Origin: Bugula neritina
Lineage: Eukaryota; Animalia; Bryozoa
DNA: 64,000 nt
Direction of reading: 5' to 3'
Assembly (NCBI GenBank): GCA_964035545.1
Contig: OZ037765.1
Location: forward strand, 8,256,698 to 8,320,697
Of this stretch, positions 1-53,342 are shown in pieces. The position numbers and the translations under genes are program-made. Below the pieces are notes generated by a model that saw only the letters and a list, made by a program, of their open reading frames with translations, did not search any database and was not told the origin of the DNA. Numbering within the stretch: the stretch's first letter is position 1; each line of letters opens with the position of its first letter.

Positions 1-2253
1 AGACCATACCTATATGGCAGGAAGTTCCGGCTGCGTACGGATCATGCCTCGCTGATCTGGTTGTGCAGGAGAGCAGAGCCCTCTAGTCAGGTCGCCCGGT
101 GGCTCGAAATCCTAGCTGAATTCTCGTACCGGATCGAACACCGACCGGGCAAAAGACACAGCAATGCGGATGGGTTGAGTCGCCGACCTGACGGAGGTTG
201 CAAACAGTGTCTCAACATCGAAAGGAGGGATGGAGGTCCCCCACGATGCGAGTTGGAGACGCTGGCTCATCACGGAGCACCGTTTGATTGGGATCAAGGT
301 CAACTCAGGCAAAGAGTTGATGAGTCCCCGGAGGATGTACAAAACCTCCGCGCCAACCCTGTACTGGCCGGTAATGTTCGAGAGCTGAAGAAGCTCCAAG
401 AAGAGCTGCCTGGAGTCGTGGCAGACATATACCGGGCCAAAAGGGAAGGGCGACGACCCAGCGAGGAACGCATACGACAGGGATGCGCCGAGTTCCGGCT
501 ATACTGTCAGCGTTGGGACTCGCTGCGGATCGGGCAGGATGGGTTGCTAACCATCTCTCTAGCTGCCAGCGGCAGACATCCGGAAAGGAAGAGGGTAGTC
601 TGCCCCACAGCCATCCGCCGTGAGTTGATTTGGGATACTCACAAGCAGACCCACGCAGGGGTCAAGCGAGTGATGTCCAAATTACGACTTCGGTGGTATT
701 GGCCACAAATGGAGCGTGATGTCCGGCTCAGAGTCAAACAGTGTGAGATCTGCCAGGCCAGTAAGCATAGCCGCCCCCCTGGTGAAGCAGGACGGCGGAG
801 GCTATACGCTGGTAGGCCCTGGCAAGTAGTCGCTGTAGACCTGGTCGGACCCATGCCCCTGACCCCCAGAGGCAATAATTGGATCCTAGTACTAACCGAC
901 CACTTTACTAGGTGGGCGGATGCTCTGGCTATCCCAGACGCATCAGCCCCAACAGTGGCCAGGGCACTAGACCAACACGTATTCTGTTATTTTGGGCTCC
1001 CCGAACAGATACACTCTGATCAAGGCGCTCAATTCCAGTCTCAACTGATGAGCGACCTTTGCCGCCTCTGGGGAGTAAATCAGAGCAGGACCACCCCCTA
1101 CCACCCTCAAGGTAACGGGGTGGTGGAGCGCAACAACCGGATGCTAGGTGATGCACTCCGGAGTCTCCTCCTTGGACGAGGTCAAGAGGAATGGGATACG
1201 GTGTTGCCGCAAGTCATGCGTGCATACCGTAGCACCCCACACACCAGTACTGGTGAGACCCCAAACCTCTTGATGCTCGGGAGAGAGACTCGTGTCCCCG
1301 ACCATCTCACCTATCACGTTCCAGAGCAAGATAACTCAGTCCACGAGTATACCAGTGAACTAGTGGAACGGATGAAGGCCGCACACGAGATACTGCGCCA
1401 ACAGCAGTGGAAGGTGCGGCACGAAGATTCCGATGAACCACCCCTCTATCAAAAGGGAGATAAGGTGTGGATGGTCAATTACCGTAGGCGCCGCGGACAG
1501 GCTGATAAGCTGAAGCCTAAGTTCGTAGGCCCCTACGTGGTTGTCGAGGCTATGCCCAATCATACGTACAAGATTGAGCGCTCAGGAAAGGTATCTATCC
1601 AGAATGAGTCTCGCTTGAAACCGTATTGGGCTAGCCCCGGCGGAGTGGGAGAAGCCCCCCCGTTGTTAGAGCCCAGGAGGCAGACAACAACGCGCGGGCG
1701 ACGGCGGCATGGACCTGAATACGAAGTGGTCATACCGCGGGAAGAAAACTTGGTGAGAGAGGAGCGGCAGCTTCTACCAACAGAAGCGTGTCCGCCACCG
1801 CCAAGTCTAATTCCATCACTTCCAGAAACCGAGCCGGTTCCGGAAGTGCAAACCCCCACGGAGGGAGGGGCTCCATCCGGAGAACAAGAAGAGGTGACGG
1901 CTGACGGTGAAGTAGAGACGCCATTAGAGGCCCCTACTAACGAACCGGCAAGCGTGTCACCCCCCCTAGAAAGGGGACAGCGTACGAGGCAACCCCCCGC
2001 ATACTTGAAGGACTTCGTATGTGACTGCGTTAAAAGCGGCACGCATGAAAGTCTAGGGGAAAACCGTACGAGAAAAGAATCGAGCAAATGTGGGAGTTGT
2101 CAACACCACGGGAATATCAACTTTTACATTGGCGGAAATAGAAATAAAATTCATCCGCCGGGTGCACAAAGTCTTAATCACGCACCCCAACCACGTTGCT
2201 CGATCTTTTCATACGCTGATGCAGTCAGGAGTAGACGTGTTTCTAAGCAGTAG
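1..2253 (+). CDS. pol: Gypsy Pol C-terminal part: RNase H end, integrase (HHCC zinc-binding, DDE core, GPY/F), long Pro/Glu-rich tail
   Basis: Frame is open from base 1 (RPYLYGRKFRLRTDHASLIWL...ARWLEIL...HRPGKRHSNADGLSR). Motifs: H(KQT)H...C(EI)C; VAVDLVGP, HSDQGAQF, YHPQGNGVVERNNR; KLKPKFVGPYVV. No stops or frameshifts. Confidence 0.96.
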   Translation, partial: RPYLYGRKFRLRTDHASLIWLCRRAEPSSQVARWLEILAEFSYRIEHRPGKRHSNADGLSRRPDGGCKQCLNIERRDGGPPRCELETLAHHGAPFDWDQGQLRQRVDESPEDVQNLRANPVLAGNVRELKKLQEELPGVVADIYRAKREGRRPSEERIRQGCAEFRLYCQRWDSLRIGQDGLLTISLAASGRHPERKRVVCPTAIRRELIWDTHKQTHAGVKRVMSKLRLRWYWPQMERDVRLRVKQCEICQASKHSRPPGEAGRRRLYAGRPWQVVAVDLVGPMPLTPRGNNWILVLTDHFTRWADALAIPDASAPTVARALDQHVFCYFGLPEQIHSDQGAQFQSQLMSDLCRLWGVNQSRTTPYHPQGNGVVERNNRMLGDALRSLLLGRGQEEWDTVLPQVMRAYRSTPHTSTGETPNLLMLGRETRVPDHLTYHVPEQDNSVHEYTSELVERMKAAHEILRQQQWKVRHEDSDEPPLYQKGDKVWMVNYRRRRGQADKLKPKFVGPYVVVEAMPNHTYKIERSGKVSIQNESRLKPYWASPGGVGEAPPLLEPRRQTTTRGRRRHGPEYEVVIPREENLVREERQLLPTEACPPPPSLIPSLPETEPVPEVQTPTEGGAPSGEQEEVTADGEVETPLEAPTNEPASVSPPLERGQRTRQPPAYLKDFVCDCVKSGTHESLGENRTRKESSKCGSCQHHGNINFYIGGNRNKIHPPGAQSLNHAPQPRCSIFSYADAVRSRRVSKQ

Positions 2254-2277
2254 TTCAAACCATTTCACACATTCAGT

Positions 2278-3349
2278 ATGTCTTACGACAACAGATCGTG
2301 GGGTGAGTTAACTATATCTTAATACGAAACTAGATTGCATCGCTCAGCTCTGGCTCACCGAGTCAATCGAGCTGGAGATAGGTTAGTGAAATACCGTAGT
2401 AAGAACTCAGTTTGACTTAGAGATTTTTATAATCTCATTGCAATACGTGTTCTATCTGACTATTCACTACCATAAATCTCTACGAGGTAACTGAAGTAGG
2501 AGTTGCCAAGCTGTTCAAGCTGACAACACAGCAGTGTACTGTATTAACACTGTTGAAACTTTTTCAGATTACACTCGACCCGCTACAACCAGGGTACGGG
2601 ATAGAACACTTCCCGCTCCGTATCCGGAGAAGTATGCTAGTGGTGACCGGCCTGAGCCACTACGCCGCCGTTGGCGGTGGGTGTCTCCACAAACAGAGGA
2701 AGAAATAGAAACGGCCTGGGGGTCCAGAGGACGGACGAGATGCCAGATCTGTGGTGAAGATTGCGCCTCTCACCGCTCCCTTAAACTACACGTCAATGCT
2801 CATCTCCTCCTAACATTCTGCCCCTGCGGGTACAATGATGTGTATCCCTACCCCGTCACCAGACACCGAGCGGCGGGCTGTTTCCCTGGAGAAAACTACG
2901 TGGTCGACGTTAAGCTATACCCGGAGTTTCTCACACTTATACGACCTCTGGTGAAGAAGGCCATGCTGTTAGCCGTTCTGTCCTCGGGGTTCCAACGTGT
3001 GTTAGACAACGCCCGCCAACAATCCCCGTTGGTGTCTGACCGTCCGCAAATTACATACACCCCCGAGGAAATTACATATCCAGAAGAAGGAGAGATCTCC
3101 CCTACCCCGACGAAGAGACGAACCAGGTCCCCCAGTCCACCCCTGCGCCGCAGACGGACACCGTCCCCCGACCCAGTCCGCCTGGCCACAGTAGAAGAAC
3201 GCCTCCTGCGATTACAAGAAAAGTTCACCCAGCTGGCACCAGATCTACTTAACACTACAACAGGACTCTTCCAGCTAAAGGGATCCGTATGCCGCATGAA
3301 ACGGAAACTGCGTACATGCCAAGCCAAGCACCGGCGTGCCCAACAATGA
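2278..3349 (+). CDS. Retrotransposon accessory ORF, predicted spliced (2278-2302 + 2568-3349), ~268 aa zinc-finger / Arg-Ser-Pro / coiled-coil protein
   Basis: ATG 2278 (MSYDNRSW+G) followed by donor GTGAGT at 2303; acceptor CTTTTTCAG ending 2567; G+AT restores the frame of ORF 2534..3349, which has no usable N-terminal ATG. Contains C-x2-C-x12-H-x3-H followed by C-x-C-x12-H-x4-C. Confidence 0.72.
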
Positions 3350-3646
3350 CTCTGGTTCTGCTGCCGGAATAATCTGCAATTTCATCCTCTTGGGGGAACC
3401 CAGGACTTCGTGTAAATGCTTAACTGCTGGACAGGTTATTCCTTGCCTAATACCACAGCTAGCTAGTATTCCTCGTCTATCGGCAGCTGGCCAATTGTAT
3501 GCAACGGATCGTTACGATGACTCTGTATTATTATTATGTCTCTTCCTGTATATTATGTGTTATTTTTGTCCACTGATGTATGTAGTTATTAATGAATGTT
3601 TTTTTTTATATATATCAGAAAGATGGCTTTCTGCTGGTGGGGGCGG

Positions 3647-3952
3647 TGTGGTGGTTCGTGGAACTACCAGCAGCACAACATGTAGGGTCGCGTAATTGAC
3701 CCGGAACAATGGATAGCCAATTAGCGTAGTTGATAGTTAGCAGCAATTGTAGTTTCCCGCTGCTAACTCAGTCGAAGCTAGAGTGTGAAATAGATTAGAT
3801 GTATAACTTGTTGGAAATAATGTATCGTGTTTTTATAATGTATAGTTGTGTATAAAATATACTCGTTCACTCGACTTATCCTGGTGCAGTTCTATAGTAG
3901 ATAAATAGACTCTCTGGATAGCACATCAACCCTAAATCTGAAAATCTTAACA
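3647..3952 (+). repeat. Probable 3' LTR (~306 bp)
   Basis: Starts TGTGG immediately after the PPT, ends ...TAACA, and has TATAAAA at 3851. The 5' LTR is not in the window, so the edges are unconfirmed. Confidence 0.65.
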
Positions 3953-4663
3953 CTACTACTAGTACTACTCTAAGTACAAGGTCAAGTGGAAGTTTAATTT
4001 TGTTTTAATGCGATTCGAATGCTATTGCTACCTACTTGTACTAGAAGTAGAAGTAAAACAATCACTTGTACTTTTTTATTAATTTTTACTATAGCTAAGA
4101 CTAAGACTAAGATACTAAGATTAAGATAACCATCAGTATTACATTTACTGTATTTTACTACGTTTCCATTATGCGAATGGATTTTTTTCATTCGGCTAAT
4201 GGAAATAGTTACATCGAATGCAAACCACAAACCACAATTAATCTGTACAGGCATTTATTCGCATAATGCTCAGTCATGGAAACGCAGTGATTGTTTTAGT
4301 GTGTGTTACTATTCTCAAGGCTATAAATAAGTGTTAATGTTAGTTAGTAAGTTAGTGTTAGTAAATACTCAGTTTTATATTTAGTATTTACTAATACTAA
4401 TTTATTTGCTATAAAACTAATTTTGGTATTAATATAAGTAAAACCAACAGTAATATTAATAGTAACTATACTAATAGTAATACCTAATATTATAATTACA
4501 GTACTAATAATAGTTATACTAATACTGTCTCTAACAGTAATACTTATTGTAAATTCACTAATTTTTTATAGTAATAATAACACTAACATTAATAAGTAAT
4601 GACCATACTAATACTTTTATTGATATTCACACTCAAGGTATTGGTAAGACTAAATATTTCAAT

Positions 4664-8189: not shown

Positions 8190-10576
8190 TCATATAATGT
8201 TTTGGGCTGGTATAGTGTACTGCAGAGATAGCTGGTCATTGATAACAAACATTTGGATGGCTTCATTTGCTATTATGTCTAAAAGATAGAGAATATATTA
8301 GCAGAATATAGTGTTGAATATGGATGAACTTAGCATGCAGAGCTGAATGCATTTTACCAGTGAACTTCATTATCGTCAAATTAATACTTTCAGCAAATCG
8401 TTTTTCACATGCTAGCATATTTTCACACTCTGGACTAGTATTTAAGACGAGATATTTCTACAGCAGTAATTAAGTGACATCAATAAACAGATAAACCTTT
8501 AGCTTTCATTATGAAAGAAGAATTTTAGATAAATATGTGGTTTTTCCTAAATAATATCATTATTGTTGTCACATTAGCATTATTATTTCAATTACAACTA
8601 TGCTAACACAACACAGTTATAAATGTTTATTTGCTTAAACATTTTTGTGACAATCTTTAAATAAAAATGTATGAATTAAAATGATAAACAATAAATGTAG
8701 ATCTAAAAATTGATGAAGCTGCTATGAAATTTCAAGCATTATTGAGAAGACAACTCCCTTGTTTATCCAAACTGATCAATAATGATGAAATGGTAACTTA
8801 CTGCAAACTACTTTGTCGACAGGGATTTGAATCGATGAGAGAAAAGCATGCAATCTTTTATTATCTATTGTTACTTCAAAAAACTTGGACGCATTCCTAT
8901 TTGAAGAAGGCTGAATCATCGTGCCTTGAGACTGTGAAGAGCTAGTTTCTTCTATAACAAATAAAACCATATTACATAATATTATTTACTTTGTTTTTAA
9001 GTTTTTACCAATCTTTAATTCTTATAAACAAACATAAGCTGAGAACATTTTAAAAATGAACTCACTCCAGTTTGCTTGCATGAGATCCTTAAATGAAACA
9101 CTCACAGCAGCCATCTCTGATTTAATTTTCAAGACCAGATCTCCTTTTTGGTTAGCACTAAGACACTTGAAATACAATGATACAAAACTATGAACAAATT
9201 ATACCAGTTGAAACGGGTATTCATTATACGGCAGCAGGAAAATCGTAAAAAAAACAAAGCAAAACTATATATGTGAATTTGATCAACCATTGGCCATACA
9301 ATGACTGCCCTTCCTTTCTCGAAGTTTTAGAGATCCGAGTAGATGTTTTGATGACTTATTGCAGAATATATGAGCTTTAGCATAATACAGTAAATTACCA
9401 AGTAGATATTTTTAACTAAAGTACAGAAAAAATGTTTTCTGCTTACCAGTGCATTGCTAATATTTTTCAGTCGCTCAATCACAGTCTTCATAATTTTAAG
9501 AGGTGGCAAATATAAGCTGACTTCAAATTCAGGAATATCTGGTTCCTTATATTCATCCCAAAGTCTGCTAGGAATTATTTTTATTGGAATGTCATGTATT
9601 ACTGTTCTACTACTGCTGTTGATACTGAGTGTAGGCTGCAATTGAACACAGAGAATGCAAAATAGTTTTATGAAACTAACAAAAACTGTTGGAGCAAATT
9701 AATCTGAATGTATCATTGTAACAGTCATCCCACCGGTAGTAACCCTACACGAAATTACCAATTATAACACACTTTGGCAAATTGTACTCTTGCTAAAAGT
9801 TTTTACCACAAGCTTCCAATTTTCATTTAGCCCTGAAAGCAGCAGTTCTAACCTGAACCACCTCTAAAGTTAGGCAGGCAGTAGCCTTCTGTGTCAACTT
9901 TATTCTAAGTGTTTGAGCTTGATGAGCAGACTTGAGAGCATGACCAAACAAGTCCATAGCCACTTCCATGTAAGTCTCATTTCGATCAGTGTGCCCGGAG
10001 AACTCATAGCCTGAGCAAAAGTTTATCTGCAAAAATACTGTAGAGCAGAAGTATGCAACCAGAAATACTCAATTAAACGTTTTTTTTAGATGGGTAGTCA
10101 ATTTACACTATAATGCCTTGCACATTATGACACAATGCTTGTAAACTGATAAGAAAACTAATTTTAGTCCTTTGTAAACATTATCGTAAGCAGAGCGCAA
10201 AACACACAAGCTTTGATACGCATGTATGAAAGCAGAGAAGTTTTTGGAGGATCTTACCTGAGGTAACTCACACCAGAGATTTGTCCCCCCATGCAACTGA
10301 TTTTGTGTGAGTATGAAATAAATTTTTGTAGCTGTGAGTCGGATTACACACGACTTAGAGAGTTTGGCAACACCCAGTACAACTTCTACAAACAGTTAGA
10401 GTTACTTACTACAAAATATACTTGTAAGTTATGTAATAGTTAAAAGCTACGTACAAAATTTCATAATATTTAATTCAAGTTTATAATTTAAAAAAATAAA
10501 TTATCATCTATGCTTTCCACTTACTTGACAGAAATGATATAGAGTTAATGTCAACCAGAGTTGCTTTAAAACGCAT
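8190..10576 (-). CDS. HUS1: Checkpoint protein HUS1 (9-1-1 clamp), 7 coding exons: 10525-10576, 10258-10385, 9853-10026, 9447-9635, 9066-9165, 8802-8951, 8190-8278
   Basis: MRFKATLVD...VAKLSKSCVIRLT...GGTNLWCELPQ...ALKSAHQAQTLRIKLT...SRTVIHDIPIKIIPSRLW...VSLYLPPLKIMKTVIERLKNISN...SLQYTIPA; colinear with recalled HUS1; splice phases consistent. Confidence 0.95.
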
Positions 10577-15681: not shown

Positions 15682-15966
15682 TTAACTGCTTGTGTAATAG
15701 ATTCTAAAATTTATGCCAATGTATACAAATATATTGAATTGCGTTTTTGTCTAAATAATTTATTATACATGGTATTTTTTTATTTTACCTAGGGAGCTAT
15801 CTCCCTTTCCCAAGTTTCTCATTGTTCTAGAGCAGGGGTGTCTAGACACTACGTATGTTTATATCACTGCCAATTGATAGAATGTTTTGTACTGTTTCAG
15901 AGTTTATAGGCTGTTTGCCCAAAGTTCAACTACAGTGAATGACTTCAGGTTACAGTTGAAGCTATC

Positions 15967-18900
15967 ATGGCCGCAAATAGGTTCAACTTAGGAGGGTTTA
16001 TCAAATCAATTCAGCAAAGTGGGATGGCGCCTCAGAAAATTGTGGTTGATAAAAAATTGATGGAGAAGTCTTGGAGGTTCATGGACAAAGTTGTGAAATT
16101 ATGTCAGCATCCTAAAATGAACTTGAAAAACAGCCCTCCGTTTATTTTAGACATACTACCTGATACATACCAACACCTGAAACTGGTTTACAACAAGTAT
16201 GAAGATAATATAGCTTTTCTTAATGATTGCGAATATTTTCGAGTTTTTATTGAAAACTTGATCGCTAAATGCAAAAATGCAATAAAACTGTTTAAAGAAG
16301 ACAAGGAGAAAATTTATGAAGAAAATTCCAACTGCCGACGTAATCTTACCAAGCTATCACTTGTGTTCTCACATATGCTGTCAGAGTTGAAGGCGTTGTT
16401 TCCCTCAGGTATATATTGTGGAGAAACCTTTCGAATAACCAAGACGGATGCTAGTGATTGGTGGAAAAAGACATTTCCAGGAAGGTTGGTGGTTCTAATT
16501 TTTAAATTTTGTAAAAATAAATTGTTTTTTATTGCTACTCAGTTATTCAGTGTCAATTGTTGTTTACATTTTAAATAGTTGAATACATTGACTTGGCAAT
16601 TTTCATTTATTCAATAGTTAACATCTGTCTCATACAGTGGTCCTTCACATATTATAGGGCTTTAGTACTACGGTGTATCAAAGTTCATCATAAGAGTTTT
16701 GTGCAACTGATTTTCTATATGCCTAATTGCACAGTCATTGTAAAGCATAAATACATGAGCAATAGTTGCAGTAGTTTATATTGTTGTATATCCTGTTTTA
16801 AAACAACTATACTTTTTTGGTATAATTTGTAGGCAAATAGCTCCATGGAGAGATTTCCAAACAAGTATCACAGAAGTTCACAAAATATCTACCCAGATGG
16901 AATCAATGGCTCTGAAGACTACCATTGATTTGACGTGCAATGACTACATATCCTGCTTTGAATTTGATGTCTTCACTAGGTAATGGTATCTTCACTAGGT
17001 ATTGATGTCTTCACTAGGTAATGATGTCTTCACCAGGTAATGATGTCTTCACTAGGTAATGATGTCTTCACTTGATATTGAAGTTTTCTAACTTCTAGTG
17101 AATTGACAACTACTATTCATAGCTAATAGTAATGACCATTGTAATGCCCACAGTAATAATGGTTTTCAAGCAAAGGGTTTCAAAGTATTCAGAGAGTTCA
17201 AAAGTATTGAAGTACATCAGTATTTGCCTTCAAATATTAGCATATTACAAACTACAACAGTATATGTTAGCAACTTGTAATGTGTGTTCAACAGCAGCTA
17301 ATGGAAATAATTTCACAGTTTGTAGGCTACTATGCTTACAATTATTTATTAGTTTATGGTAGTAGTCTTAATATAGTCTGTAAAATATCTTATCTGCTTT
17401 TTATCAATATAGCAACATGCTCTTCGTGGTCCAATCTGCTATTGTAGCTTTTATTACATTCTGCTTATCATGATAAACTTTTTTGGCATATGGTTGAGCG
17501 ATTTTAAATAAAAAACCAATTGTTAAATGCTAATGCTTTCGATAGAATATAGAGTGTAGTTGATGATGATATTTGACGATAATAGGCAGTAGTGTGATGG
17601 TATACTAACAGATTGTAAATGATTGACGCAGGGAGTATGGGGCACATTGAGCTATCCAAATGTTAACTCCATGGTTAGAAACGGTGATATTTGGTTAGAG
17701 GAGGCACGGTGATATTTGGTTAGAGGAGGCGTAAAGGTTCAGTTCTTGTGTTTTGTTAAATGAACTCAAATGTCACGGTCAAGTCTGGGGTTGACTTGTT
17801 GGTTTAGCTAGCTTACACGCTGCAGCTTATCTTGTACATACAGAGCATTGATGCTGTGTTGTCATGTTTCACAAGCATACATTCTGTCACCAATATTGAA
17901 AGCAACTTAGATCTGAAATAATATCTGGGCTGATTTGGCTTTAAATTTCAGTGTGTTTTTATTTTCTTTCCAATACATAATTTTGGCAGATACACATGCT
18001 TCCCTTAACAACTGAGTTACCGAGTAATGTTTAACTCAACACCTGAAAGTAGCTCAACACTATGATCAGAATGACGTAATCTAAATGCACCCTTTAAGTT
18101 CCAGTGGCTGATAAACAAATTACTTGCGTAAAATATGTACAATAAACCAAATATTTTAGTGGTTATTATTTTTGTTAGGCTCTTCCAACCATGGTGCAAT
18201 TTATTGGTCAACTGGAGTGCCCTGTCTGTAGCACATCCTGGTTACGCAGCTTTTCTAACTTATGATGAGGTGAAAGCCAAGCTAACTCAATATATTGACA
18301 TCCCAGGAAGGTAAGTGTATGCTTGATTGTTTCATATTATTTAGTAGAAGTGATTCAAATGTAGGGATTTCATCACTTGTCTATGCAAATCACAAAGAAG
18401 AGCTGTGAATTATTCATGGCTGCTTATAAGATATAATTGCTTAACTGTTCGTTGTTGTAATTTGATTAAGTTTTTATGGACAGAAGTATGCTGCAGAAAT
18501 AGGATAAGTTGTGTTTGTCTTCCCAATGTCACCCTTGTGTTTTTTGTGGGTAAGTAATGGTAATTATTATTGTTGTTTTTTAGTTATGTATTTCGTTTGA
18601 GTTGTACAAAACTTGGACAGTGGGCTATAGGATACGTCACCCATGACAAACAGATATTACAAACAATACCACAGAACAAGTCTCTAGCCCAAGCGTTACT
18701 TGACGGGCAGAGGGAAGGCTTGTGAGTATACATGCTTACAGTTTATGTTATAATGTTTATAGTTTATGTTATTATGTTTATGAGTCTAGGCCCTTGGTCT
18801 GTACTTGTGTATTGATCTCAGATAAGACTCTGGTAATTTCTTTTGTTTCTGTAGCTACTTGTTTCCAAATGGAGGCGGCGAGAACCCAGACCTCACGTCG

Positions 18901-23940: not shown

Positions 23941-24084
23941 GAACTGCTAGAAACAGCACTAAGTTGGGGGTGACTAAGTACAGTATTTGTATATACATAA
24001 TTGCCCGATCTTCAAACCCCCAACTCTAAACTTGAGACCCCCGAACAACTGCTTTCGGGGACTACAAAGTCAGTGCTGCTTCAA
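23941..24084 (+). mobile_element. ~145-bp TIR-bounded (MITE-like) element, copy 1
   Basis: Imperfect TIRs TAGAAACAGCACTAAGTT / AAGTCAGTGCTGCTTCAA; aligns along its length with the reverse complement of 60312-60462. Confidence 0.6.
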
Positions 24085-24258
24085 CCCAATTGCTGTTCTA
24101 GACGCAATAATCTTCTTCAGCTTGAGTTGTGCATTTACTGATTTAGAAATTCAAAGCTAAGTGATAACGATATTCATAATTCAGTAAGAACTTGGTACCA
24201 TTTTATCGTCTGAAACCTTTTCTATTGGAATAGCATAAATCTCGATCTGTGAGTCATA

Positions 24259-26304
24259 ATGTCATCTGCGACTTTACAGTTCCAAAAACAAGTAGGCCAG
24301 CTTCAAGCTGAAGCAGCTTTGAATCGTATGAAATTATCTGATTCTTTGAAAGAGTGAGTTTGACTTGATATTTAATATTTATTCACCCTAGAAGTTGTAA
24401 ATAATAACTCAACAAGGTTATACTTATATGATTGTATTCATACTCACTATCAGTATGACCTTACTACACTATTAGTACTACTATTAGTATTACTATTAGT
24501 ATTAGAATTAGTAAAACTAAATCACTAAATGTAATGTTAATACTAACAGCAATAGTAATACTAATACTAATAGTAATAGTAATACTCATATTGTTAGTGT
24601 TAGTATTACTATTAGTATAAGTAAATTTAACACTAATAGTTATAGTATTACTAATAGTAATACTATTAGTATTAGTATTACTAATAGTAATACTTTAAAT
24701 ACTAATACTATTAGTATTACTATTAGTATTACTCTATTAGTATTGCTATTACTATAACTATTAGTATTAGTATTATTAAATACTAAATATAATACTAATA
24801 GTTACACTCTTATAGTGATAGTAGAGCTAAATACAATACTAATAGTAATGGTAATACTAATAGTGATAGTATTACACTATTACAGTATTAGTATTCCATT
24901 TACTATCACTATGACTATGTCTGTTAGCATTACATTTACTATCAGTATCAGTGTTGCTTTGAAATTGATGGTAAAATTATAATTGTAAATTGTTTAAGTT
25001 ATATTTAATTTTATAGTAATACTAATAATAATTTACTAATACTAATACTAATAGGAATACTAATACTATTAGTGTATTACTAATAGTATCAGTAATGCAT
25101 GATGATAATAAATATTTATATTTAATTATTGTTATTATCTAAGAGTAAGTGGTAGTCTATCACTGTGATTATAAACTCAAAAAACTCTTGCAATTTTATA
25201 GTCTCTATCCCTTGAGAGACCCCTGATAGAAATGTTTTTTTTAAAGCGGGCTAAAGACTTATTCATATGTGGCACAGAAGCAATAATGACTCGATTCTCT
25301 TCTTTACATCGTCAATGGCCTTTACTGGGTTTCGAACCCATGACTACATGTTTATTAAGCCAGTGTTCTAACCCCTAGACCACGGTTGCTCCCTGTGATT
25401 ATGAACTCAGTACTATAGCTATTTACTTGTAGTTTTAGTAATATTTATATTGGTAATGCCAATGCCCGATGATCTTACTATTCTTATCAATAGCTCAAGT
25501 TGGTGTTGTAGCCATATTGATATTCGTACTCGTACTGTTTCTGATACTGATCATCATATTCAGTAAGAGTATGAGTGCACACTGAGTAAGCACAACCCAA
25601 TATCATAGTGATAGTCATAGTTATAGAGCTTATCAAGTTCAACAATCAATATTTTGCATTTAATTTTTGTTGTTTTGCTTTTACACAGCATTCACACATA
25701 CACAAATTTGCATATCAGTAAAATGTGCTAATGCCACTTTTTACCATTGAGTCTTGTTATATGACTGTCAGCCCATTAGATACTTCAAAGTAAATAAACA
25801 GAGGAACATCACCTCTACAACTCATATAGAATGAACTTGATAAGCGCTAGAACTATGACTATCACTATATATTGGGTTGGGCATACTCAGTGTGCACTCA
25901 TACTCTTACTGAATATGATGTGCTTACTTTTTCCACTCCAGTTTAGAATAAGATATTAGGCCTATGCATAGTTTAGTTAATCTGGCTTGAAATATTTGCA
26001 TGCTATTTTCTTTTTAATTTTATAGCTACAGGTTAAAGGAAAAACTTAATTTACTAGATTTAGGTTATGTTGGTATGATTAAGTTTTAGCTGAATAACCG
26101 GTTATTGGTATTATGCTACTTACCAGTATGGCGCTGTCCTTTCAGCTTTGTTTAATTTCTGTTATCAACTAGTAGTATAATTTATATAATTGCTGCAGAA
26201 TGATGGACCATATTCAAAAATATGAAGCGGCTGATCCTTTTGTTGCTGGAATTGCCCAAAATGACAACCCATTCAAAGATCAGAAGGGATGCCTAATTCT
26301 CTAA
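24259..26304 (+). CDS. Heterotrimeric G-protein gamma subunit, 66 aa, 2 coding exons (24259-24353, 26199-26304)
   Basis: MSSATLQFQKQVGQLQAEAALNRMKLSDSLKE-MMDHIQKYEAADPFVAGIAQNDNPFKDQKGCLIL*. Shows the GGL pattern (QL..EA...R.K.S; DP...G....NPFK) and CaaX box CLIL; GA|GTGAGT...TGCAG|A in phase. Confidence 0.92.
25180..25393 (-). mobile_element. tRNA-derived SINE, copy A (in G-gamma intron, antisense)
   Basis: Minus strand has A box TGGTCTAGGGG and B box GGTTCGAAAC; 16-bp TSD TGTGATTAT(A/G)AACTCA at 25164-25179 and 25394-25409; homologous to 41067-41268. Confidence 0.88.
25552..25920. repeat. Fold-back element: ~90-bp inverted repeats (25552-25641 / 25832-25920) with ~190-bp spacer
   Basis: CATCATATTCAGTAAGAGTATGAGTGCACACTGAGTA...TTATCAAGTTCA matches the reverse complement of the right arm with few mismatches. 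Confidence 0.85.
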
Positions 26305-27088
26305 AGGAGGTATGACATAAATTTCGTCTTCAGTTTTTGAAATTCTTTGTATATGCTAAATTATCTTGAAAACATTTATGTATCGACATGAAATTTCTTT
26401 TTTAGATCATCTGTTTTCAATCTAGTCCTAAATTTGAACACATTGTAACCCTGTAGTAAATGGTGAATCTCGAAGTGTCGCTAGCAGCTCTAAAGTGGGA
26501 AACTGTAATCATTTCATGTTTACAGAAGCTCTATATTGCTTTACAATTGCTTTATAAGTAATAGTCATCTTGTTTTACTGTTATAACATGTTTTATTTAA
26601 AAATATAAATGTTGATTTATTTATAATAGAAGTATTACAATAATAGAATGAATATTATACGGCTTTTAGAATGCCAGCTTTTTATTGCCACATAAGTCAG
26701 CAAGATTTTATGTATTAAATATATTCTGATTGTTGTCAATTCATCAGATGCTTCAATTAAATAATGAAAAATAAAAAATGAATGTTAAGAAAAAAAAACC
26801 TCTACTCCGATTGTTTTAAAATATTAAGCTGCTGTAGCTGAGAAATGTCTATGAATTTTGGTTTAGAGTGCAAGATTTAGATTTTGCAAAAACATCATTT
26901 ACGGGAGATTTTACTATCTACAACATAGGCCTCTTCAAATTTTTCTAACCTGCACTTACATTTGTTTAAAAAAAATCTAAATTCCAAAAAAGCTCAAATA
27001 CGAGTAATAAAGATAGTGAATGAATATGAAGTTTATAAATCACTAAAAAACAATATAAAATATACAGAATATCAAACTGGGAATGATA

Positions 27089-34395
<7,307 letters not shown>

Positions 34396-36976
34396 TCATA
34401 CAATAAAAATGGTTGCATCATCAACATATCTAAACTTCTATAATATCTTGTTACGATTCTGTTTATAGGACCGACTGGTAACAACTGGTTTTAAGAATCT
34501 CGTTTTATTTAAAACAAAGAATAAAGATAACCGTATTTGTGGAATTTATAATTATACTCTTTCAAGGTCAATGTATCAAAAAATTTATATAAAAATATGT
34601 AGTATTTTTACAAATCCTGCTATAATTCAATAAAGAAAAAGGTAAACATTTACAAGTGTGATGCTATAATAGTAAACTTTTAAGCGCCTGAACTAAGTTG
34701 AGATAGAAAAATGTTAGTTCAACTGCACAACTCTGTTTATATCTTCATCTTTCATTTCAACAGAAATGGTTTTACAAAAAGCATAACTTAAAAATCACCA
34801 ATTCAATAAAATAGCTACATGCAACATTATTTTATAAACAAGATTCATACTTACTAGTCTACGAAATGACAAGCAACAATATAAAGCTACTACCAACTAA
34901 ATCAACATATATCCACTAAACTGTATGCAATCAATTGGTGAGATAATGCTCTAATCATAATTTGGTATATGCTATCACCATATTGTCAAACAATAAACTT
35001 ATGGAATCCTCATAGATGTGTTAATAGGGTTGTTACAGAATAATCAAGAAGATAAAGAGCTTAGGAGATAATATTTAAGGTCAAATGATAAACTTGCACT
35101 AATAATTTTGAAGATTTACCCGAGAGTTACACTTTAACCAAAAACTTTGGATTCAAACGGAATGTAAAATTAAACATTTTACATGGCATAGTATAACATT
35201 ACCATATTATAAAATTTTCTGAATATTGAAAAATAATTCTAGTAGGCAACTAGTATATAAAACTATCCAGATTTAGTAAGAAGCTAATAAAGAACTGGAT
35301 TTATGAGTTATAATTAACTGTATTACAATTATTAACTTAATAAAAACCATTGCTCAAGCATAAAACTTAAAGTATGCCTTAATAACAAACTAAATGTCAA
35401 ATTAGCAACACATATCAACTTTATTAAAAAACAGGACAGTAATTTTGTAGCGTTTACCAAATTTGGCAATAATCATGATAATTCTCAATTTTGATAATAA
35501 ATTTGTAATAATATGCACAAAGTAGTTTTTAAAATTTTATCTTGCTTATGCTAAAACTTAGTGCACTAGTTGAATGGATATGCTACCTTTGTCTTTTTAT
35601 CACCTCTTTATTTACCAATTAGACTAACTTCAACTTGAGTTCAAATTCTGAGGCAAGAGCAAATAATTGATCTATCTCAATTTTAAATCTATATTTTTAC
35701 TATAACCTGCATCAAATGCAATGATACTGGTTATGATTAAAATAGCTATAATTATAGTAATACTACGATTGATTTCATGATTAGGATTATGGTACACAAT
35801 ATAAGAATGAATATATAAACTATTGCACTCAAAATTATAGTGATAGTCACTTAATAATAATAATGTATCAGTAAAATCACTTATTATTAAACTTGAACTT
35901 ATTAAAAATTAAATAAGCTAGTACTAGGCAATATGAGTATGACTACCATAATCACTATAAGTATCAGTCTGAGTATGATAGTGAGTGAGTATGGCCATCA
36001 ATATTAGTGAGGGTATTACTTTACTACAGTAAAATAAAAACTAATTTCATGACCATAGTTAGCCATTTGCATAGGATCTGGTCTAGATGTAAGCCATTGA
36101 CTACTGTGATTTTCATTGTCACTATCAGTATGAGTATCATTGTTATTACACCTTCACTTTGACATACTGTTGATAATCATAATTGTGATAGTATTAATGA
36201 TTGTAAAGTTGTAAATTGTTAAAGCTGAGTCTGTTATAATAAATGATTAACATTTTGAATCATATAGTTATTCTTACAATTACTGAGTAGCGAGTAACAC
36301 TAACTGCAACTAATCCTACACATACTGAAAGTGTAACTCTACTTATAGTTGTAAGCATAGCCACAGCTAGGAAAAGCATGTTCCACACTAGTTTTTTTGC
36401 CACAAACAATTCATGAGATGTGAGGAGAATATAATGACTAATTACCAAACAGCAAGTGCTGTTACAAATGCTAACCCTGGTCTAATATAAGTTGTTACTA
36501 GAGGCTTCCCTATGGCTATAGCCATTCCAGCTGCTGCGGAAGTTCTACCTCAACTAAGGTAAAGCCCATAAGTCATAACTTCAAGTTGAAGCGTTGAATT
36601 AAAATAAAAATAAAAATACATAGCCTACTCATTCTCATAGTCATACGACTACTCTGACTCTGAGTAATAGTAGGCATACACTTAGAGTTAGTCTTACTCT
36701 TACTCTTAGAGTTACACTTACTGTGTATGTTGGTGACTTACTGTTAGTGTTACACTTACACTTGCAGTAACTGTAATACTAATACTAATAGTAATACTCA
36801 CACCATTAAACTTAAAGTAAGTGACAGTGACATTGTAAGTCTAAGTTGCTGTTACTGCTAGTAACACTTACACTGTGCTAGACTTAGTGCTAGTGTTCAA
36901 GACTAAGAGTAAGAGTTAGCTTTAGATTAGGAGTAAGACTAACTGAGAGTGAGTAACAGTAACTCTACTTCTAGTC

Positions 36977-37136
36977 TAGGAGCAAATAGTAATTATATTT
37001 ATAGTATATTGACCTTACTGGCTTACACCTTGACTTGCTCTAACTCTAAGACCTGAGTAAGTCAAAGTCAAAGTGTAACTGTAACTCAAACTGTAAGCCA
37101 GTAAGGTCAATTTACTATAATCACTATTTGCTCCTA
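36977..37136. repeat. Inverted repeat, ~50-bp arms
   Basis: TAGGAGCAAATAGTAATTAT...ATTGACCTTACTGGCTTACA versus TGTAAGCCAGTAAGGTCAAT...ACTATTTGCTCCTA. Confidence 0.8.
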
Positions 37137-37659
37137 TTACCTATGATAATATTAAACAATGTTTAATAATTTATAATGATATTTACATTAAAAGTAATTA
37201 TATTGGTAAGCATTTTAATAATTAACACTATCTAAATCTTCGTATTTAATTTTATGTTTAATATGCCATGATAATGCCCATGATGATCATCCTACTACTC
37301 GGATGATTATTGCTCTGTGTTCCGGCTTGTAAATACTATATAGCACGTCCGTTCAAGAAAACTGTTATCCGAATATATCTATAGATTTAAAAATATTGTC
37401 ATCTGTGGTACACAGTTTAACTGAGACAACTCAAATATTTATTTTTTGTTCAGCGACAGCGTTTGCTTATTTATAGAGTAGATAACCCCATAATAATATT
37501 CAGTTCATCCTAAAACATTCTTAGCCATTGAACTATAATACCTTTATAGTTTATAGGTTATAGTTTCAGTTCAGTGTTCTTAGCTTTGTGGAAAGCCGAT
37601 AAGAGTTATCAATAGCGATGCACTATTCCGGAGGTAGACAACTTCTTTTGCCTGATGCC

Positions 37660-37850
37660 AAGTTCAGAAGTCAGCCAAAACAAAGGGCCACATGACTGTA
37701 CACATATTAATTTTTATTATCATAAAGTAATTTGTCACCAAACTTATACTGTGCTTATAACAGCTTTTACTCATTTTAGCATTAAAAGGGCCACTGAAAA
37801 ATGGACAAAGGGCCACAGGTGGCCCTGGTATTCCCAGTTGCCCACCCCTG
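37660..37850. mobile_element. Probable hAT-type non-autonomous transposon remnant
   Basis: Ends in GTTGCCCACCCCTG (reverse complement CAGGGGTGGGCAAC, a hAT-like TIR) with repeated AAGGGCCAC subterminal motifs. The other end is not evident. Confidence 0.4.
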
Positions 37851-39157
37851 CACTATATTGTTACATTGCACTTATATTGGCTACACAGCATAGTATATAA
37901 GTTTAGCTGCAATTTATATTTGTTGGGCAGCATGAATGCAACAGATAAAAATAACTCTATTAATAGTTTTTATTATAGATACTCATACAGCAAAAGCTAA
38001 AGTGTAATGTGAAATACTAATGACCAAGCATGGCCATCTGGTTTTAGTTGTTGAAGGTTTTAAAGTTGATAAAAAAAGTAAGTAGAGTTATAAAAATTTT
38101 ACGGTCAATTTACATGCACAGCTACATTTTTAGCTTACGTCTCACTAAAAGAAATATTAGTTCTAAATATAATTGGGAATGTATATTTTAAGCTAGAATA
38201 TACTTAAATTCTAATAAATTGAATGTCAAAATTATGAAAATGTTGCATGTTCAAAGAGTCCACTTTATTTGTAAGAAAACAACTATAATTAAAGTAATTG
38301 AGTTTTTTGAAATTATAACTTGATTATACTTGACTTTTTTATAACATCGCAAAAGTGAATGAAATAACACAAGCTTGTGTACTAAAGTACGAAAGATAAC
38401 TAAAAAACCATTGAAAAACTAACAAACGAGATTGTCCCATTTTGCTATATTAACTGCTGAACAAAATTTGTACGAAAACTTTTGTACACAAAATACGATG
38501 TTTTGGAAACATAAGTAAAAGTCTAAATAACTTGTATTTTGACTTTTGCTTTTTAACACAGCATTCTAACTTATTCACATGTATTCTAAACCATTTTCAT
38601 GCATAAGTAAAAAGTATTTAGTATATCCAGTCGAATATTTATACTATAAATAAGTATGCATTACTGCATCAGTATTCAATTACTCTATGCGCCCAAACTA
38701 CTATTTCATAGGATAACAAAAAATGTAATTATTTTTTGTAGCTGCTGCTGTTCAAGGTGATCTTTAACTTCACTTTTTAAAGATTTATTAAAGCTTTTAA
38801 AAAATGATTCATAATAATTATTTCGTAAAATATAATCTACAGTTATACAAAACTGGAAGTGCATGTGTTGAAAAATATAAGAAAAATATTGACAATAAGA
38901 AAATATAATATTATGCAAAAATATAACACTTTAATGTACAGCAAAGTTATGCTAAGTTATTTTTTGATGGCTTTGATTCAATTACTGCTAAGACTGCATA
39001 TTATTTTTATTTGCTGTTAAATTGTCAGAATTTAAATTTTACTATATCTGTAACATTTTGTGTTGTCCACATGACACACAATTTTCAACCATCAGTGCTA
39101 TAGACTAAGAGTTTAAATTAAACGATTTGCTCTTGAATAAAGCTTATTTCTGAAACT

Positions 39158-53342
<14,185 letters not shown>

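Follow-up and report, generated by a model that had tools for sequence, protein, structure and literature searches.

The window analysed here, 64,000 nucleotides of Bugula neritina DNA (contig OZ037765.1), begins inside a Gypsy retrotransposon that carries a further open reading frame beyond pol. Gypsy elements are usually drawn as gag and pol with or without env, and the only regulatory protein of an animal Gypsy element that we found in the literature is CERV, from the C. elegans element Cer1. What, then, is this third gene, and what does its product do for the element? An earlier note had read the product as a nuclear regulator encoded by the element, and had offered four functions for it: trans-activator, RNA export or splicing modulator, anti-silencing factor, or integration-targeting tether.

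The element and its surroundings

Bases 1 to about 3925 of the window make up the 3′ half of a Gypsy LTR retrotransposon. The 3′ part of pol (1..2253, forward strand) extends beyond the left edge of the window and encodes the end of RNase H, the zinc finger and core of integrase, an SH3-like domain, and a tail rich in Pro and Glu. RT_RNaseH, Integrase_H2C2, and rve were found in it above the Pfam cut-offs, and SH3_Tf2-1 below. RNase H precedes integrase, as is the Ty3/Gypsy order, and the full order protease-RT-RNase H-integrase was seen in the relatives L013 and L010. A polypurine-tract-like G run (3636..3646, forward strand), in an arrangement similar to that at the end of L013, is followed by a probable 3′ LTR of the form TG...CA (3647..3925, forward strand). 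Its ends are inferred, the right one being 3925 or 3928, and the 5′ LTR would lie outside the window. An Rfam scan of positions 1–4300 gave zero matches.

The GC and GC3 values of the accessory frame (0.56 and 0.55) equal those of pol (0.56 and 0.56), unlike the host flank, whose GC is 0.28. In run X1, the summed contig depth was about 24,000–41,000 over the accessory frame, against about 130 in unique flank; this depth is not a copy number, and it points to a high-copy element family. Runs X2 and X4, which contain small pieces only, were left out of the evidence.

Several features of the neighborhood may be recorded here. At about 2020–2110 the Pol frame extends past the point where the integrase tail usually ends and encodes a short stretch rich in Cys and His, which is missing from P0201, a related protein described below. 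The region at about 3930–4340 shows high depth, with loose ends at 4167 and 4220 in both X1 and X2, which suggests a second small repeat element adjoining the LTR. Beyond base 4000 the DNA is AT-rich (GC about 0.22–0.40), and the window contains intron-containing host genes: an LRR gene from 4664 onward on the forward strand, a Hus1-like gene (exons at 9327–9698, reverse strand), and a Cbl-like gene (exons at 15943–16578, forward strand). The LRR gene, in which Pfam shows LRR only and which resembles CFAP410/C21orf2, begins about 740 bases past the LTR on the same strand, and the LTR could affect its promoter. A tandem array with a 28-base period occupies 44091–44773.

The accessory frame and its start

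From stop to stop, the accessory frame covers 2495–3349 (284 aa), its stop codon ending at 3349. The product of 268 aa given in the earlier note would need a start at the ATT at 2543; the earliest in-frame ATG is at 2963, after the zinc fingers. A candidate branch point with a 3′ splice acceptor was found at 2542..2567 on the forward strand (TTTTTCAG, ending at 2567, in phase 1 of the accessory frame). TTT[CT]AG occurs only once in bases 1–3650, ending at 2567, just 5′ of the conserved part, and residues matching the acceptor region are present in 16 of the 19 close homologues that reach so far. Because the sole TTT[CT]AG lies there, no ATG precedes the fingers, and the residues are matched in homologues, the sequence suggests that 2567 is a 3′ splice acceptor served by an upstream exon outside the window. 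The coding exon, drawn from homologues and the pattern of variants, would extend over 2568..3349 (forward strand), with 259 codons from 2570 to the stop.

With a score of 8, the site at 2567 falls below a 9-pyrimidine filter; the seven other sites that this filter picked out lie in pol. No splice junction appeared in the assembled contigs of one RNA run. One RNA-library contig spans 2716–2934, where DNA carry-over is possible. In L003, L005, and L013, the stretch preceding the zinc-finger module held no acceptor passing the pyrimidine filter. Many close homologues have a Met shortly past the acceptor point; the branch of the window is without it.

Conservation of the protein

Two zinc fingers are present on the forward strand just as they had been read: finger 1, of the C2H2 type, at 2741..2803 (C-x2-C-x12-H-x3-H), and finger 2 at 2819..2881 (C-x-C-x12-H-x4-C). 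A protein search returned 65 homologues of the accessory frame with 44–97% identity, and a profile search returned 121 proteins at E values up to 0.001, distant ones with the same layout included. The closest named homologue, P0210, is a Bugula neritina protein (57% identity over half of the query). Close relatives were aligned as 46 of the 65 homologues, shorter fragments being omitted; a wide alignment of 46 rows comprised the window, 8 close, and 37 distant proteins. In the latter, the ligands of finger 1 were kept in 42/44, 44/45, 45/45, and 45/45 rows, and those of finger 2 in 45/45, 45/45, 43/45, and 36/43 rows. Hence seven of the eight are kept in at least 95% of the residue-bearing rows, the last Cys being the exception, and the ligands are conserved down to about 20% identity. 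The conservation of Cys and His ligands, on which the earlier note had made its reading depend, is thereby established.

Variants among copies were counted in X1 after three variant rows outside the exon had been dropped. Of 28 listed variants in the exon, 15 were silent (p 0.02; expected silent fraction about 0.26–0.31), and there was no stop and no indel. From the module onward, a boundary chosen by the analyst, 13 of 21 were silent (p 0.006). Since the ligands are kept across homologues and the copy variants lean silent, the motifs are not due to chance.

The Arg-rich Ser/Thr-Pro stretch is also real, and spans 3098..3169 (forward strand) instead of the 3095–3175 given before. It is specific to a small branch: an RRRTPSP-like repeat occurs in 3 of the 65 close homologues, and only a loosely basic Pro/Ser-rich linker recurs. 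With 31% identity and 61% occupancy in the close family, this region is the least conserved after the N terminus and the linker. In hepadnaviruses, the core tail has conserved SPRRR-type repeats behind a capsid domain. The likeness to that tail and to SR-type proteins, proposed in the earlier note, was abandoned in view of this narrow distribution, and PDB sequence searches and viral fold searches gave no core-protein match.

At the C terminus, a heptad stretch and a basic tail were confirmed, the coil proving longer than had been described. The predicted coiled coil, taken from the heptad count and a long model helix, lies with its tail at 3182..3337 on the forward strand. About seven heptads are contained in 3182–3331, with 12 of 16 a/d positions hydrophobic and a helix at residues 206–258 of the full model; the basic tail is at 3293–3337. 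In the close family, identity is 81% for the coil (residues 203–240) and 61–65% for the fingers, and conservation of the tail falls to 34% in the wide set. A homodimer prediction for the coil, in which the alignment was not used, scored 0.04 and speaks neither for nor against a dimer.

No signal peptide or membrane segment was detected. The best 19-residue hydropathy was 1.5, with R/K inside that stretch, and AlphaFold modelled the most hydrophobic stretch as helices of the folded domain. As Pfam scans of the protein and its close homologues also showed no Env family, the earlier exclusion of Env stands.

A predicted folded module without a catalogued family

AlphaFold2 predicted a compact folded module at 2645..3031 (forward strand), consisting of a Trp helix, the two fingers, a V-D strand, and three helices (129 residues; pLDDT 95.8, pTM 0.88, 88 sequences, one domain). 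Conservation agrees that the unit exceeds two fingers, extending to the Trp-containing helix before them and the V-D strand and helices after them.

Neither the window protein nor any of the 46 close homologues in the alignment reached the cut-off of a Pfam family, the homologues giving only weak matches; the zf-C2H2-type score of the window protein was 13 bits against a cut-off of 25–27. Among 52 distant members, only P0140, which has two copies of the module, passes one finger cut-off (zf-C2H2_4). With the domain alone, fold searches reached a best Z of 3.9 and returned neither a Foldseek match at E 0.001 nor a PDB structure matching the whole domain; this is no proof that the fold is new. 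Fold searches with the full model were dominated by generic long helices, and PDB sequence searches gave only weak matches, to designed coils and C2H2 proteins. In an Atlas search with the Watersipora homologue P0202, unnamed clusters came at 0.90–0.91, followed by C2H2 clusters below 0.9. Thus the view that the frame belongs to no described family is upheld as far as Pfam is concerned. The open-access literature searched contained no description of the accessory frame, which Repbase, Dfam, or GyDB entries may already note. In the main text, as available, of mollusc and annelid LTR surveys (PMC6238403, PMC8556966) the word 'ORF' does not appear, and the accessible part of the Flustra genome paper mentions neither gypsy nor zinc fingers.

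Zero matches to the accessory gene were found in viral contigs and in metagenome contigs, and zero to the integrase in viral contigs. A search for longer proteins (971–2770 aa) was empty, a weak result given that P0201 (1460 aa) surfaced by another route.

Linkage of the module to a Gypsy lineage

In P0201, RNase H, integrase, and SH3 are followed in frame by the same module, then by a linker rich in Pro, and finally by a coil, and the protein shares 50% identity with the Pol of the window over 694 residues. For an unbiased test, 28 loci were chosen by integrase likeness alone and then scanned with the module profile. Twelve of them had at least 1.4 kb of downstream DNA, and the module was found in 8 of the 12, on the same strand and 0.64–1.05 kb past the integrase match. 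When only loci with near-full integrase matches at 50% or more and enough downstream DNA were counted, the figure was 8 of 9. The misses were L010 and the weak or partial integrase matches L023 (30%), L024 (43%), and L025 (70 residues); the module profile matched none of the 16 loci in which the downstream DNA was 1.06 kb or less. With so many copies and relatives, the claim that the gene is encoded by the element is borne out, and no sign was found of a captured fragment confined to this copy, there being 65 homologues and integrase-linked relatives.

Three of the loci merit separate mention. L010 (1125–7628) encodes a related Gypsy Pol in which a dUTPase separates RNase H from integrase and whose C terminus carries a divergent zinc-finger pair and a coil; the pair looks different, the module profile did not match it, hhalign gave 7% probability, and the locus was counted as a miss. 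In L026 (1758–2096), a frame past a distant integrase (24% identity) has a basic cleavage-like site and then a Gly-rich hydrophobic stretch, env-like by eye. Frames at 2413–4406 of L025 are presumably a Polinton-type packaging ATPase and its neighbors, unrelated to the accessory gene.

The eight module loci reduce to four families, namely L003, L013/L015, L011, and L005/7/9/21, in which the gene is arranged differently. In L003 and L013/L015, as in P0201, the Pol frame runs on into the module. A separate frame with its own ATG was found in L005/7/9/21, where, as in the window, a spacer of about 0.2–0.3 kb follows the Pol stop and the accessory frame is another one. In L011, Pol and the accessory gene share a frame and are parted by a lone stop codon (3765–3769), which may be read through or may be peculiar to this copy. 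Where the module is fused to Pol, an acidic N-terminal part is preceded by an internal Met, whose context is good in L003, and translation on its own is also possible. All four families end in a predicted helix of heptad character, mostly behind a basic Ser/Pro-rich stretch. At least six families have the module in the same position, the modules being less than 45–50% alike. We consider it almost certain that the accessory frame is a real gene belonging to the whole Gypsy lineage. An uncatalogued gene marks the lineage, in three expression modes: fused, one stop away, or separate. In several divergent families it is located between integrase and the 3′ LTR, the site at which env would be expected.

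As far as context is visible, the module is confined to one Gypsy lineage and a few host-annotated bryozoan genes. Watersipora subatra XP_067940963.1/964.1 (two modules) and XP_067944745.1 hold it, and so do Bugula neritina KAF6040922.1 and KAF6040923.1, which have adjacent locus tags. An extra N-terminal motif is common to XP_067944745.1, KAF6040922.1, and KAF6040923.1, in one of the three by eye. In the rows P0142, P0203, and P0216, which are bryozoan host-annotated proteins, an N-terminal motif accompanies the module, and two Bugula genes are neighbors. Judged by its sequences, this group looks like a host gene family and a candidate for domestication. In a module tree, unrooted and built on few columns, element-linked rows are dispersed and host-annotated rows stand in three places. 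This would fit repeated domestication, the tree leaving host-to-element and element-to-host transfer undecided. The module gives a handle on unannotated bryozoan genes.

An ARS2-type motif in part of the lineage

The earlier note had missed the sequence EEGEI (3083..3097, forward strand), which matches the pattern [ED][ED]GE[ILV] of the motif that recruits ARS2 (PMC9402713; also ELM class LIG_ARS2_EDGEI_1). The match was spotted by eye before testing, as were similar words in relatives; the definition of the motif and its function come from published work independent of the present data. It is located in a low-confidence linker that is likely disordered (pLDDT below 50 at residues 172–184 of the model).

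When all six frames of the 28 loci and the whole window were scanned (381,262 residues), the pattern was matched 8 times, and 8/8 matches were in the frame and strand of the accessory gene. The 24,249 residues of gag/pol gave 0 matches. The motif was present in 3 of 5 integrase-selected families (shuffles of 10-residue blocks, P at most 5e-5), and in 4 of 7 when the window and P0201 were included (P 1.4e-6). Among 147 module-bearing proteins 8 carried it, with 0.26 expected; by cluster, the figures were 7/33, and 6/24 outside two large clusters for those with at least 50 residues before the module. Outside the same two clusters, 6 of 50 proteins had it, with 0.21 expected, and three scrambled control patterns gave 0.

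Its distribution is patchy. In the subfamily of the window, it occurs in 2 of 65 module-bearing members and in the fragment P0006; it is rare in this clade even with a relaxed pattern, and the next cluster gave 0/32. L010 and L011 lack it, and P0201 has only a near match. It is placed after the fingers in the window versus before them in the other families, and the chance of finding it in the window copy was 0.1–0.5% per shuffle. The window copy may have regained the motif or show it by chance, and a single inheritance could account for its presence in the three integrase-selected families. As far as sequence can tell, the ARS2-type motif has been under selection in part of the lineage and is present in the window copy, without being a constant of the family.

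Together with the cap-binding complex, ARS2 decides whether new transcripts are processed and exported or decay, through partners that bear the motif and bind in a mutually exclusive way (PMC9402713, bioRxiv 10.1101/2023.07.25.550453), and nuclear exosome adaptors act on the RNA of LTR elements (PMC11760258). Searches of the open-access literature turned up no mobile-element protein for which an ARS2 motif had been described.

Proposed role of the accessory protein

Taken together, it is very probable that the accessory protein is a nuclear regulator of the element. As to what it regulates, the motif favors the RNA-fate branch among the four functions proposed at the outset. Our main reading, to which we give a probability of about 0.4, is that the protein may protect the full-length RNA of the element and help to export it by docking on the host cap-binding/ARS2 complex.

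The steps would be as follows. The third gene would encode a spliced, Rev/CERV-like nuclear protein. In the window copy, the mRNA would be spliced and translation would begin in the upstream exon outside the window; relatives would use their own ATG or make the protein together with Pol. The finger module and the basic tracts would bind the nascent RNA of the element or its chromatin, and the coil would oligomerise the protein. The acidic motif could then compete with host ARS2 partners such as ZC3H18, ZFC3H1, and ZC3H4, which direct capped RNAs to be terminated early or degraded by the exosome. Thereby intron-retaining genomic RNA would survive and exit the nucleus. Phosphorylation of the Ser/Thr-Pro stretch may tune the protein, as for CERV. 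An element with an internal splice acceptor needs to export unspliced RNA, which is the problem that CERV solves for Cer1, and a protein that joins an ARS2 motif to a module for binding nucleic acid and a coil for oligomerisation would fit such a job. If true, the ARS2 link would be a counter-measure of a mobile element against nuclear RNA surveillance, of which we found none in the literature searched. A wider proposal, that in a lineage of invertebrate Gypsy elements a mimic of host RNA-surveillance scaffolds, made up of an ARS2-docking motif, a new double zinc-finger domain, and a coiled coil, replaced env and hijacks CBC/ARS2 sorting to spare retroelement RNA from premature termination and exosome decay, and that bryozoans made its domain into host genes more than once, is doubtful.

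Four other readings were weighed against RNA docking. The first is a DNA-binding regulator or anti-silencer of the LTR, whose fingers read DNA, whose coil dimerises, and whose acidic patches recruit activators. The best finger-level structure matches are indeed DNA-bound tandem C2H2 pairs (Kaiso, SALL4, CTCF), the alignments being weak (Z 3.0–3.7 over 50–58 residues). Many distant members have acidic N-terminal stretches and a basic first helix, and they begin the helix of finger 2 with an R-D pair, versus prolines in the subfamily of the window; bryozoan host-annotated genes also carry the module. Besides these prolines, the lack of a TGEKP-type linker and the low net charge of the module in the window (+2) speak against DNA reading. 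VANC-type anti-silencers rely on a short cognate word of DNA scattered over the element. In 6/6 elements no 7–9-mer was over-represented above a Markov null, the window contributing its 3′ half only, which speaks against a VANC-type system. The ARS2-type motif is also left unexplained, and a regulator of this kind is rather unlikely.

The protein might instead be a tether that targets integrase, or a particle component, comparable to the chromodomain that ends Pol in other elements. The in-frame modules of L003, L013/L015, and P0201, the divergent finger pair ending Pol in L010, and the single stop of L011 all agree with it. It is made improbable by the window and L005/7/9/21, where the gene is in another frame past the Pol stop and has either a candidate splice acceptor or an ATG of its own, and by the internal Met of the fused forms, through which separate translation is possible. 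To an equal degree improbable is a Rev/CERV-type RNA regulator that would act through its basic tail and a putative leucine-rich export signal, the acidic motif being optional. Conservation in the close family is highest in the coil and basic tail, and most of its members lack the motif; beyond the close clade the tail is not conserved, and the heptad accounts for the leucine spacing. Finally, a host gene fragment captured once and useless to the element is very improbable and, as a 'useless' passenger, largely refuted, for although XP_067940963.1, XP_067944745.1, KAF6040922.1, and KAF6040923.1 hold the module and the tree leaves the direction of transfer unfixed, the constant place of divergent modules across families, the excess of silent changes, and a base composition equal to that of pol all oppose it.

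Comparison with known systems

As a regulatory accessory gene of an LTR element, the gene would be of a known kind; its domain is uncatalogued. Classical tandem C2H2 proteins (Pfam zf-C2H2) share with it the canonical spacing of finger 1 and a weak superposition of DNA-binding pairs, and differ from its C-x-C second finger, its five-residue link, and the joining of Trp helix, strand, and helices into one predicted domain.

Rev, Rex, Rec, and Tas are spliced regulators of complex retroviruses, encoded by a small ORF near the 3′ LTR and having an Arg-rich stretch and an oligomerisation helix. A small ORF near the 3′ LTR, an Arg-rich stretch, and a helix are found here too, but there is no sequence or fold link, and the present gene belongs to an env-less invertebrate Gypsy element and has a double C2H2-type module. 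Chromoviruses carry a chromodomain at the C terminus of integrase. Like it, our module is downstream of integrase and, in some relatives, in frame with Pol; the domain differs, and the gene is a separate ORF in the window and L005. The chromodomain is a named accessory domain in the available text of PMC6338049.

Among the ARS2 effectors, Red1/ZFC3H1 are the most comparable, having the motif in a disordered region, zinc finger(s), and a C-terminal coiled coil, as far as the accessible text of PMC9402713 describes them. Other effectors with the motif, named in the available parts of the sources, are ZC3H18, ZC3H4, FLASH, and NCBP3 (PMC9402713, PMC10767929, bioRxiv 10.1101/2023.07.25.550453). 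They are host proteins, for which PDB sequence and fold searches found no homology to the accessory protein, and in the accessory frame the motif is single and in part of the family only, and docking on ARS2 is putative.

CERV is a close parallel. The accessible part of PMC10309623 describes CERV of the Gypsy element Cer1 as a spliced protein that has a leucine zipper and a putative, Cys-rich zinc finger, is phosphorylated in a proline-directed manner, and is required to export unspliced Cer1 genomic RNA. The same text gives it 517 aa, exons shared with gag, H, M, and G-protein-like domains, a C4-type loop, and no obvious homologue outside nematodes, and discusses no ARS2 motif in it. The accessory protein, whose putative upstream exon would be outside the window, showed no G-like fold in models or fold searches. 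Like CERV, it is an extra Gypsy protein with candidate splicing, zinc fingers, a heptad coil, and a Ser/Thr-Pro stretch.
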